Source: a virus
Lineage: Duplodnaviria; Heunggongvirae; Uroviricota; Caudoviricetes
DNA: 21,794 nt
Direction: 5' to 3' (one strand)
IMG/VR virus record: IMGVR_UViG_2737471841_000006
Coordinates: 1 to 21,794 of that record
This document shows positions 19,744 to 21,794 of this stretch, in pieces. The first letter of the stretch is position 1. Each line of letters opens with the position of its first letter. The notes beneath the pieces are model-generated. The model was given only the letters and a program-made list of their open reading frames with translations. It made no database searches and was not told the origin of the DNA. The translations under genes were made by a program, and so were the position numbers.

Positions 19744-20029
19744 TACGGAAGAATTTCACTGGTTACCAGAGGATGGAATGAAAACAGAACATAAACCATC
19801 GATAAAAACTGTAAGATTTGGCGATGGTTATGAGCAACGAAGTCCAAATGGACTTAATCATTCTCAGCGTGTTTTCACCTGTGATTTTAGGGTCGAGGCG
19901 AATGATCGTGATTCATTTGAACAGTTTTTACTCCGGCATGGAGGTTATAAATCTTTTTTTTGGCGCCCGCCGGGTGTTAACAGAAATATAAGAGTGGTGT
20001 GTCGAACGTGGTCCGCTAAGCCTGGTTGA
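19736..20029 (+). CDS. Minor tail protein, lambda gpM-like, 97 aa from a GTG start; possibly C-terminally truncated
   Basis: ..[44 protein letters not shown].. aligns with lambda gpM (..VRKVRFGDGYSQRAPAGLN..EEHGGWKSFLWTPP..IKVTCAKWS..). GTG overlaps the tape measure stop. Ends about 12-15 residues short of lambda gpM. Confidence 0.7.
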
Positions 20030-21794
20030 CGGAAGTGGCAATCCGGTCAGCGTGGAGGTTCAGTCCGTCACCGACGGCGTGAAGGTAAAAGTGAACCGGG
20101 TTCCTGACGGCGTTGCAGAATACAGTGTGTGGGGGCTGAAGTTGCCGACGTTGCGTCAGCGCCTGTTCCGCTGTGTGAGTATCCGTGAGAACGATGACGG
20201 CACGTATGCCATCACTGCCGTGCAGCATGTACCGGAAAAAGAGGCCATCGTGGATAACGGGGCGCACTTTGACGGCGACCAGAGCGGCACGGTGAATGGT
20301 GTCACGCCGCCAGCGGTGCAGCACCTGACCGCCGAAGTCACCGCAGACAGCGGGGAATATCAGGTGCTGGCGCGCTGGGACACGCCGAAGGTGGTGAAGG
20401 GCGTGAGCTTCCTGCTCCGTCTGACCGTAACAGCGGATGACGGCAGTGAGCGGCTGGTCAGCACGGCCCGGACGACGGAAACCACATACCGCTTCAGGCA
20501 GCTGACGCTGGGGCGTTACAGGCTGACAGTCCGGGCGGTAAATGCGTGGGGGCAGCAGGGCGATCCGGCATCGGTATCGTTCCGGATTGCCGCACCGGCA
20601 GCGCCGTCGCGGATTGAGCTGACACCGGGCTATTTTCAGATAACCGCCACGCCGCATCTTGCGGTTTATGACCCGACGGTACAGTTTGAGTTCTGGTTCT
20701 CGGAAAAACGGATTGCTGATATCAGGCAGGTTGAAACCACAGCCCGCTATCTTGGTACGGCGCTGTACTGGATAGCCGCCAGTATCAATATCAGGCCGGG
20801 CCATGATTATTATTTTTACGTTCGCAGTGTGAACACCGTTGGCAAATCGGCATTCGTGGAGGCCGTCGGTCGGGCGAGCGATGATGCGGAAGGTTACCTG
20901 GATTTTTTCAAAGGCCAGATAACCGAATCCCATCTAGGCAAGGAGCTGCTGGAAAAAGTCGAGCTGACGGAGGATAACGCCAGCAGACTGGAGGAGTTTT
21001 CGAAAGAGTGGCAGGACGCTAACGATAAGTGGAATGCCATGTGGGCTGTCAAAATTGAGCAGACCAAAGACGGCAAACATTATGTCGCGGGTATTGGCCT
21101 CAGCATGGAGGACACGGAGGAAGGCAAACTGAGTCAGTTTCTGGTTGCCGCTAACCGTATCGCATTTATTGACCCGGCAAACGGGAATGAAACGCCGATG
21201 TTTGTGGCGCAGGGCAATCAGATATTCATGAACGACGTGTTCCTGAAGCGCCTGACGGCCCCCACCATTACCAGCGGCGGCAATCCTCCGGCCTTTTCCC
21301 TGACGCCGGACGGGCGGCTGACGGCGAAAAATGCCGATATCAGTGGCAGTGTGAATGCGAACGCCGGGACGCTCAATAATGTCACGATTAATGAGAACTG
21401 TCAGATTCTGGGAAAACTGTCAGCTAATCAGATTGAAGGCGATATTGTTAAAACGGTGGGTAAGGCTTTCCCCCGTGACTCCCGGGCACCGGAGCGGTGG
21501 CCATCAGGGACCATTACCGTCAGGGTTTATGACGATCAGCCTTTTGACCGGCAAATTGTCATTCCGGCGGTGGCATTCAGCGGTGCCAGACATGAGAGAG
21601 AGCATAATGACATTTATTCATCATGCCGTCTGATAGTGCGGAAAAACGGTGCTGAAATTTATAACCGTACCGCGCTGGATAATACGCTGATTTATACCGG
21701 TGTGATTGATATGCCAGCGGGTCGCGGTCACATGACGCTGGAGTTTTCGGTATCAGCGTGGCTGGTGAATGACTGGTATCCCACGGCAAGCATC
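19992..21794 (+). pseudogene. Tail tip / host specificity protein, lambda gpJ-like C-terminal portion (about 600 codons); no start codon, frame runs off the window end
   Basis: Stop-free frame from 19992 to the window end (I translated it by hand). GC-rich, coherent protein sequence (..[25 protein letters not shown]....[27 protein letters not shown]) that I recognise as gpJ-like. No ATG until deep inside; begins inside the end of the gpM-like gene in another frame. Absent from the track, presumably for lack of a start. Confidence 0.7.

Follow-up and report, generated by a model that had tools for sequence, protein, structure and literature searches.

A probable microhomology-mediated scar joining the tail genes M and J in a Rac-family prophage of Escherichia coli

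The virus record IMGVR_UViG_2737471841_000006 of IMG/VR, analysed here over positions 1 to 21,794 (this whole stretch of 21,794 nucleotides is called the window), carries near its right end a break at which a minor tail gene related to gpM of phage lambda stops early, and a start-less remnant of a gpJ-like tail-tip gene follows in another frame. We conclude that this break is very probably a scar without function, left when illegitimate (microhomology-mediated) recombination acted on a Rac-family prophage of Escherichia coli in the course of its decay. At 100% identity, the window corresponds to the terminal ~21.8 kb of the E. coli contig JUDJ01000023.1 (assembly GCA_000798295.1), which ends 2 nt beyond it. 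A first-pass annotation had read the break as a deletion scar in a lambda-like tail module. The deletion scar is supported, with the qualification that the J allele beyond it matches that of a different prophage in Ceylon31, the closest complete genome, and that its history may include inter-prophage recombination. The module has the order H-M-L-K-I-J in intact relatives but is of Rac type rather than lambda type, and only its L-K-I-J block is lambda-like.

Aligning the window to intact modules, as that annotation had proposed, located the breakpoint. Using blastn against the intact prophage of E. coli 442/2 (locus L003), we placed the junction at 20017/20018, which corresponds to L003 positions 19515 and 23184. 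On the left, window 9921-20018 aligns with L003 9418-19515 at 99.85% identity over 10.1 kb (99.92% for the Rac-site prophage of strain Ceylon31) and runs to nt 283 of the 339-nt M gene. On the right, window 20017-21794 aligns with L003 23184-24961 at 96.1% identity and restarts at nt 1562 of the 3396-nt J gene. With known sequences matching the left flank at 99.85% over 10.1 kb and the right flank at 96-99.9% over 1.78 kb, the pattern is evidently not due to chance. Both flanks are collinear with the intact relative, and the intervening genes are present there, as expected of a deletion scar. The interval L003 19516-23183 is absent from the window, a clean gap of 3,668 bp that takes in the last 56 nt of M, the whole of L, K and I, and 1,561 nt from the 5' end of J, which bears out the earlier view that L, K, I and the N-terminal half of J had been deleted.

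A three-way sequence display showed that the parental sequences have only 2 bp, TA, in common at the join, and these are nt 282-283 of M and nt 1562-1563 of J. The M-side parent reads GGTCCGCTA up to the join and CAGAAC after it, and the J-side parent reads CGCTGATA and then AGCCTGG. Homology between Rac-type and lambda-type sequences starts 34 bp downstream of the left breakpoint (L003 19549), leaving microhomology only at the join itself. The join contains no Ns, and the GC content rises across it from ~42% to ~60%.

The truncated gene upstream, which we call M', lies at 19736-20029 on the plus strand, has a GTG start and encodes 97 aa: 94 native codons, a hybrid codon 95 (AAG, Lys), and then Pro, Gly and a TGA stop (20027-20029) read out of frame from J DNA. 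The ORF had been described as stopping at 20029, 12-15 residues short, and both figures hold: M' is 12 aa shorter than lambda gpM and 15 aa shorter than its own orthologue, having lost 18 C-terminal residues and gained three foreign ones (KPG). It covers positions 1-92 of the 108 in the Pfam profile Phage_min_tail (PF05939), and residues 3-92 of the 109 in lambda gpM, whereas the intact 112-aa orthologue matches the profile over its full length (1-108). M' is thus recognizably homologous to gpM but truncated. Its exact product is catalogued as WP_072035052.1 ("phage tail protein") and is recorded on one contig only, JUDJ01000023.1.

The fragment downstream, J', occupies 20019-21794 of the plus strand in the +1 frame relative to M'. 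It represents residues 522 to ~1113 of the 1131 in J and runs off the end of the contig, the window and contig stopping 57 nt short of the J stop codon. A frame encoding the C-terminal part of gpJ had been reported as open from 19992. Frame 0 is indeed open from there to the end of the window, but its residues over 19992-20015 come from the M gene, translated in the wrong frame. J sequence proper begins at 20017, resuming at the second base of codon 521, and the first authentic residue is Ser522. J' gives an ungapped alignment with lambda gpJ residues 521-1101 (85% identity) and matches residues 522-1101 of chain J in PDB 8IYK. Its Pfam matches, all above the gathering score, are Ig_J, Ig_J_second, Phage_Tail_Tip and Ig_GpJ_C, which correspond to the C-terminal architecture of TipJ: FNIII-1/2, the helical shaft and central fibre, and the receptor-binding Ig domain. 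None of the N-terminal hub domains of TipJ (HDII, HDII-insertion, HDIII, HDIV) is among the Pfam matches of J'. The view that only a C-terminal part of gpJ remains, and that this part includes the receptor-binding domain, is therefore confirmed. Hub domain HDIV of lambda gpJ contains an inserted beta-sandwich that spans residues 483-569 (PMC10721106), so a break at residue 522 cuts a domain midway. HDII, HDII-insertion, HDIII and most of HDIV are lost with it; in gpJ these form the hub, together with gpL and gpI, below the gpM ring (PMC11101478).

Across all 593 J-derived codons the frame of J' stays open, and this raises the idea that the fragment was domesticated, an internal GTG or TTG start expressing the fibre and receptor-binding half of the protein, for example as a receptor-blocking exclusion factor. 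Sequences resembling a Shine-Dalgarno element precede TTG 20142/20151 and GTG 20403, and in vitro C-terminal gpJ fragments, gpJ713 among them, are able to fold and to bind LamB (PMC11101478). We nevertheless hold this to be extremely improbable. There is no in-frame ATG for J' within 700 nt; the only candidate starts are these GTG and TTG codons, whose Shine-Dalgarno complementarity is weak to moderate, and the search for an internal start or ribosome-binding site in J' returned nothing convincing, so that the internal GTG or ATG start raised earlier as a question found no credible counterpart. Promoter-like sites near J' numbered 5 against 3.0 +/- 1.9 expected from shuffles, which is background level. 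The junction is private to one assembly and gives no sign of selective retention, and the Rac prophage of K-12 has no J at all. The open frame is itself expected of a recent event, the flanks being 99.9% identical to intact relatives. We thus take J' to be a pseudogene fragment, presumably untranslated. On the opposite strand, a 305-aa ORF (20016-20933) was considered as a gene and rejected: it matches no Pfam family and lies antisense to J. Its TAG stop, the complement of CTA at 20016-20018, was created by the junction, and the ORF is probably a by-product of high GC.

In 716 of 5,426 complete E. coli genomes we found a full M followed by L, and the M-J junction was absent from all 5,426 and from phage records. 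The exact 32-nt junction pattern had no match in GTDB representatives, JGI metagenome contigs or IMG/VR. A degenerate 20-nt pattern gave 49 matches in genome contigs, all from unrelated taxa and all attributable to chance, and these were discarded. The same results dispose of the proposal that the arrangement is natural, that is, a phage lineage in which a short M is followed by a gene beginning with the J' sequence. Nothing was found in its favour. No phage record spans the junction, the 716 genomes have full M and then L, the intact prophage of 442/2 is collinear, and the J frame lacks a start codon and begins mid-domain. We regard the proposal as refuted and give it practically no credence.

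Comparable scars were nevertheless recovered elsewhere. In strains 101EVA and GPEC1405, M nt 301 is joined to J nt 1108 (near codon 370) through a 7-bp microhomology (L001 12631-12637), the M breakpoint lying 18 bp further 3' than that of the window. In four third-party annotation (TPA) assemblies (DAPHER, DAPGUX, DAPGUW and DAPGUZ), M nt 283 is joined to K at ~nt 124. These four joins use the same M nucleotide as the window and read GCGA followed by GCCGGAGG (L060-L063, last 15 nt of each contig). What these sequences share with the window is the type of event: a lambdoid tail-tip gene from further downstream has been attached to the 3' end of M through a microhomology of 2-7 bp. Since the breakpoints differ, the scars of the window, of 101EVA/GPEC1405 and of the TPA assemblies are independent. 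K-12 has a further independent scar in this region, where a third of the tape measure gene is joined to a point just before lomR and no J is left.

That the M breakpoints nearly coincide could be chance, or the border of the lambdoid-homologous block could be a hot spot. In other E. coli prophages, lambdoid nucleotide homology begins at L003 19549, 22 nt before the M stop codon. As a check on the hot spot we inspected C-terminally altered M variants of the same 90% cluster and found them heterogeneous (frameshifts in a T run, a Mu-like insertion, deletions and contig ends), so that a hot spot in the M 3' end is neither supported nor excluded by them. Several M proteins in databases (107-110 aa; P0002, P0012 and P0013 of the WP_072035052.1 cluster) are +1/-1 frameshifts in a run of five T (GATTTTTCG). 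This run sits near the M 3' end, and the frameshift, which could be a sequencing error or real slippage, is their sole difference from the 112-aa form. In GCA_018183735.1 (L065 5330-10330), M is split at codon 105 by a Mu-like transposable prophage carrying a c-repressor-like helix-turn-helix protein, MuA, MuB and Kil.

The right arm of the scar has a history of its own. Over its 1,778 nt, J' differs by a single mismatch (99.94% identity) from the J of a lambda-like prophage that Ceylon31 carries at the ydfJ (Qin) site. Against the J of the Rac-site prophage in the same strain, identity is 93% over 20017-20953 and 98% beyond 21194, with no match at 20954-21194. In other strains carrying LT-II enterotoxin genes, the best J' matches also lie at non-Rac sites. 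The two Ceylon31 prophages are in inverted orientation 218 kb apart, share ~1.27 kb of near-100% identical J (L057 18752-20022 versus L058 27934-29204), including a 725-bp exact run, and have stf/tfa regions that are 98.8% identical. Their shared J, stf and tfa sequences are a ready substrate for inversion or gene conversion. Because J' matches the J of a different, ydfJ-site prophage at 99.94%, exchange between prophages was probably involved in its history. Two histories fit: exchange of the J allele by homologous recombination followed by a simple deletion, or an inter-prophage event at the junction itself.

In the second of these, the junction would have been made directly by recombination between co-resident prophages, the Rac-site M meeting the J of a lambda-like prophage at the ydfJ site. 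Such a join could arise by inversion across the terminus region, or by homology-facilitated illegitimate recombination with one end anchored in the shared J-3'/stf/tfa homology and the other joined at TA. Besides the arrangement and shared sequences of the Ceylon31 prophages and the non-Rac matches in other LT-II strains, this origin would account for a right arm nearly identical to the ydfJ-site J while the left arm is 99.92% identical to the Rac-site prophage, and recE of the window is apparently intact (an 883-aa ORF). However, J alleles are freely exchanged among lambdoid prophages, and the data agree just as well with a Rac-site prophage that already carried this J allele and then underwent a simple deletion. 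Inversions with an illegitimate join at both ends would be rare events, and the two J alleles do not differ over the first 22 bp past the join, which leaves the arm unassignable at that point. We therefore hold a direct inter-prophage origin only tentatively, as a possible but less probable course; the functional outcome, a dead tail-tip module, would be unchanged by it. A stronger form of this proposal, which we consider unlikely, makes the M 3' end a place where homology-facilitated illegitimate recombination between co-resident prophages recurs, perhaps with help from the prophage's own RecET, and takes the scar as a direct Rac-site by Qin-site event. The M 3' end is the last Rac-specific sequence before the L-K-I-J block common to lambdoid prophages. 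Further pointers in this direction are three independent junctions within 18 bp, two of them at the same nucleotide, a J' arm almost identical to the J of another prophage, and the presence of three private microhomology scars in a prophage that elsewhere matches its relatives at 99.9%.

The duplication of J sequences also bears on whether the join exists in the genome at all. A chimeric contig could have linked the Rac-site M to the J of another prophage, both tail modules being really intact. The junction occurs in one draft contig only, this contig ends within J', a multi-copy gene, and all three scars of the window (the other two are described below) are private to the assembly. Moreover, only the last 22 bp of the 725-bp exact repeat of the Ceylon31 prophages lie in the right arm, in the manner of a k-mer overhang. 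Against this, the 2 bp common to the parents at the join leave no possible k-mer path, and the left breakpoint lies 34 bp upstream of the start of Rac/lambda-type homology, whereas an end caused by a repeat would fall inside it. The join is free of Ns, and similar microhomology scars occur in closed genomes. We judge an assembly artefact to be highly unlikely.

Taken as a whole, the evidence favours a scar of illegitimate recombination. The alignments show its breakpoints, missing content, frames and domains; the mechanism and the loss of function we infer. The ancestor would have been a full-size Rac-type prophage of the LT-II-enterotoxin-carrying group, with the tail order TMP-M-L-K-I-J (TMP, tape measure protein). 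A break-and-join at the dinucleotide TA would have linked M nt 283 to J nt 1562, taking away 18 codons from the end of M, 520 from the start of J and the genes L, K and I between them. As the join is out of frame, M' would end after three foreign codons and J' would be left as an untranslated pseudogene fragment. The right arm suggests that its allele had earlier been exchanged with a second lambdoid prophage, or came directly from it. Four points weigh against this account. A single draft assembly has the junction, and searches of other genomes, phages, viromes and metagenome contigs did not find it; only 1.78 kb of contig follow the join, all of it J', so that the sequence beyond may or may not be the rest of this prophage; the non-expression of J' is argued from sequence; and a J' arm that matches the J of another prophage is not explained by a single internal deletion alone.

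Two further scars lie in the window and, like the M-J junction, are private to GCA_000798295.1. The one at 8562-8564 links a cro-like gene, at its nt 96, to terL at ~nt 320 with GAA as microhomology; within window 8520-8610 the join is an imperfect ATGGGGGGAA/ATGGAGAA. Compared with the prophage of E21845/O/A, ~16.5 kb are absent here, a stretch that includes terS and the genes for replication, for lysis and for the LT-II and pertussis-like toxins. The truncated late operon now lies directly in front of the rightward early promoter region. At 9921-9922, nt 377 of the portal gene (DUF4055) is joined to nt 1041 of the minor head protein gene with TA as microhomology, and 2,053 bp are absent. The right-hand partner of this scar reads GATA before the breakpoint and A after it, as in the M-J scar. 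The remaining late genes are intact and 99.9% identical to those of relatives, which points to a recent M-J event. Together, the three scars would leave an element unable to replicate, package its DNA or build a tail tip.

The assignment to the Rac family rests on the left part of the window, where positions 1-7377 are 93-97% identical to K-12 Rac and to a relative at locus L055, starting from intR. The early module (intR, xisR, ralR/RalA, recT, recE, kilR, sieB) is collinear with that of K-12 Rac. The window begins at the intR stop codon, and ttcA lies immediately upstream of intR in all relatives. Full-size relatives occupy the ttcA site in many E. coli strains, including 442/2, Ceylon31 and E21845/O/A; the prophages of these three correspond to the "full-sized Rac-like prophages" named, for LT-II-bearing type II enterotoxigenic E. 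coli (ETEC), by Jobling (2016) as cited in PMC5917428. Intact collinear relatives with the order TMP-M(112 aa)-L-K-I-J(1131 aa) are found at L003, L055 and L058. In L003 the tape measure gene lies at 16007-19240, M (112 aa) at 19233-19571, L at 19571-20269, K at 20274-21017, I at 20915-21562 and J (1131 aa) at 21623-25018.

Within the window, the intact Rac-type tape measure gene (16510-19743, plus strand) encodes 1077 aa with Pfam matches to TMP_2, TMP_4 and Tape_meas_lam_C, and its 3' end overlaps the start of M' by 8 nt. It is 99.85% identical to its L003 counterpart, and ynaA of K-12 is homologous to it at 92% over window 16479-17441. Between a ydaY-like gene and the tape measure gene, at 15904-16440, lies a moron for a 178-aa outer-membrane beta-barrel of the Ail/Lom family, which is found in the LT-II prophages but not in K-12 Rac or at L055. 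The immunity region (7875-8564) is mosaic, with a 152-aa ORF for a helix-turn-helix repressor (7984-8442, minus strand) and the 5' end of the cro-like gene. It is unlike racR/ydaS of K-12 and unlike the immunity region of Ceylon31, and it is 99.8% identical to that of E21845/O/A and nine other genomes. An Rfam scan of the window returned only the antitoxin small RNA RalA (RF02694, 218 bits; 1557-1735), and nothing near the junction. As RalA lies antisense to ralR, the Rac type I toxin-antitoxin system is retained.

Compared with known elements, the window is closest to the LT-II prophages of 442/2, Ceylon31 and E21845/O/A in its late region (99.85-99.92%) and gene order, and to E21845/O/A in its immunity region. 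These prophages keep the replication, LT-II and pertussis-like toxin and lysis genes, terS, a complete portal gene and M-L-K-I-J, all of which the window has lost in whole or in part. K-12 Rac sits at the ttcA site with the gene run intR-recET-...-trkG-ynaK-ydaY-ynaA-lomR-stfR-tfaR. It resembles the window in its integration module and early genes, its Rac-type tape measure and its internal deletions in the tail region. Missing from K-12 Rac are the head genes, M, L, K, I, J and the greater part of the tape measure gene; the window, by contrast, has a complete tape measure gene and most of its head and tail-shaft genes, together with 84% of M and 54% of J. The window in turn lacks trkG and ynaK and has a different immunity region. 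Against the M-L-K-I-J module of lambda (8IYK, 8XCG), M' is a gpM homologue at 41% identity and J' shares 85% with gpJ 521-1101, and the tape measure protein and M of the window belong to a separate low-GC Rac lineage. L, K, I and the hub domains of J are absent. The receptor-binding domain of J' diverges from that of lambda after ~residue 975, so the receptor may be different from lambda's.

The scar is ordinary decay in a well-known family of defective prophages, a known kind of event that has now been mapped to the nucleotide. The Rac-type element is in our reading a dead remnant, without a tail tip and having also lost its replication, toxin, lysis, terS and portal functions, and M' (WP_072035052.1) and the J fragment should be annotated as pseudogenes. 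Its importance beyond annotation is small. It provides a clean, nucleotide-resolved example of the stepwise decay of a prophage by microhomology deletions, in a lineage that has intact, LT-II-carrying members, together with a hint of traffic of J alleles between Rac-site and Qin-site prophages.

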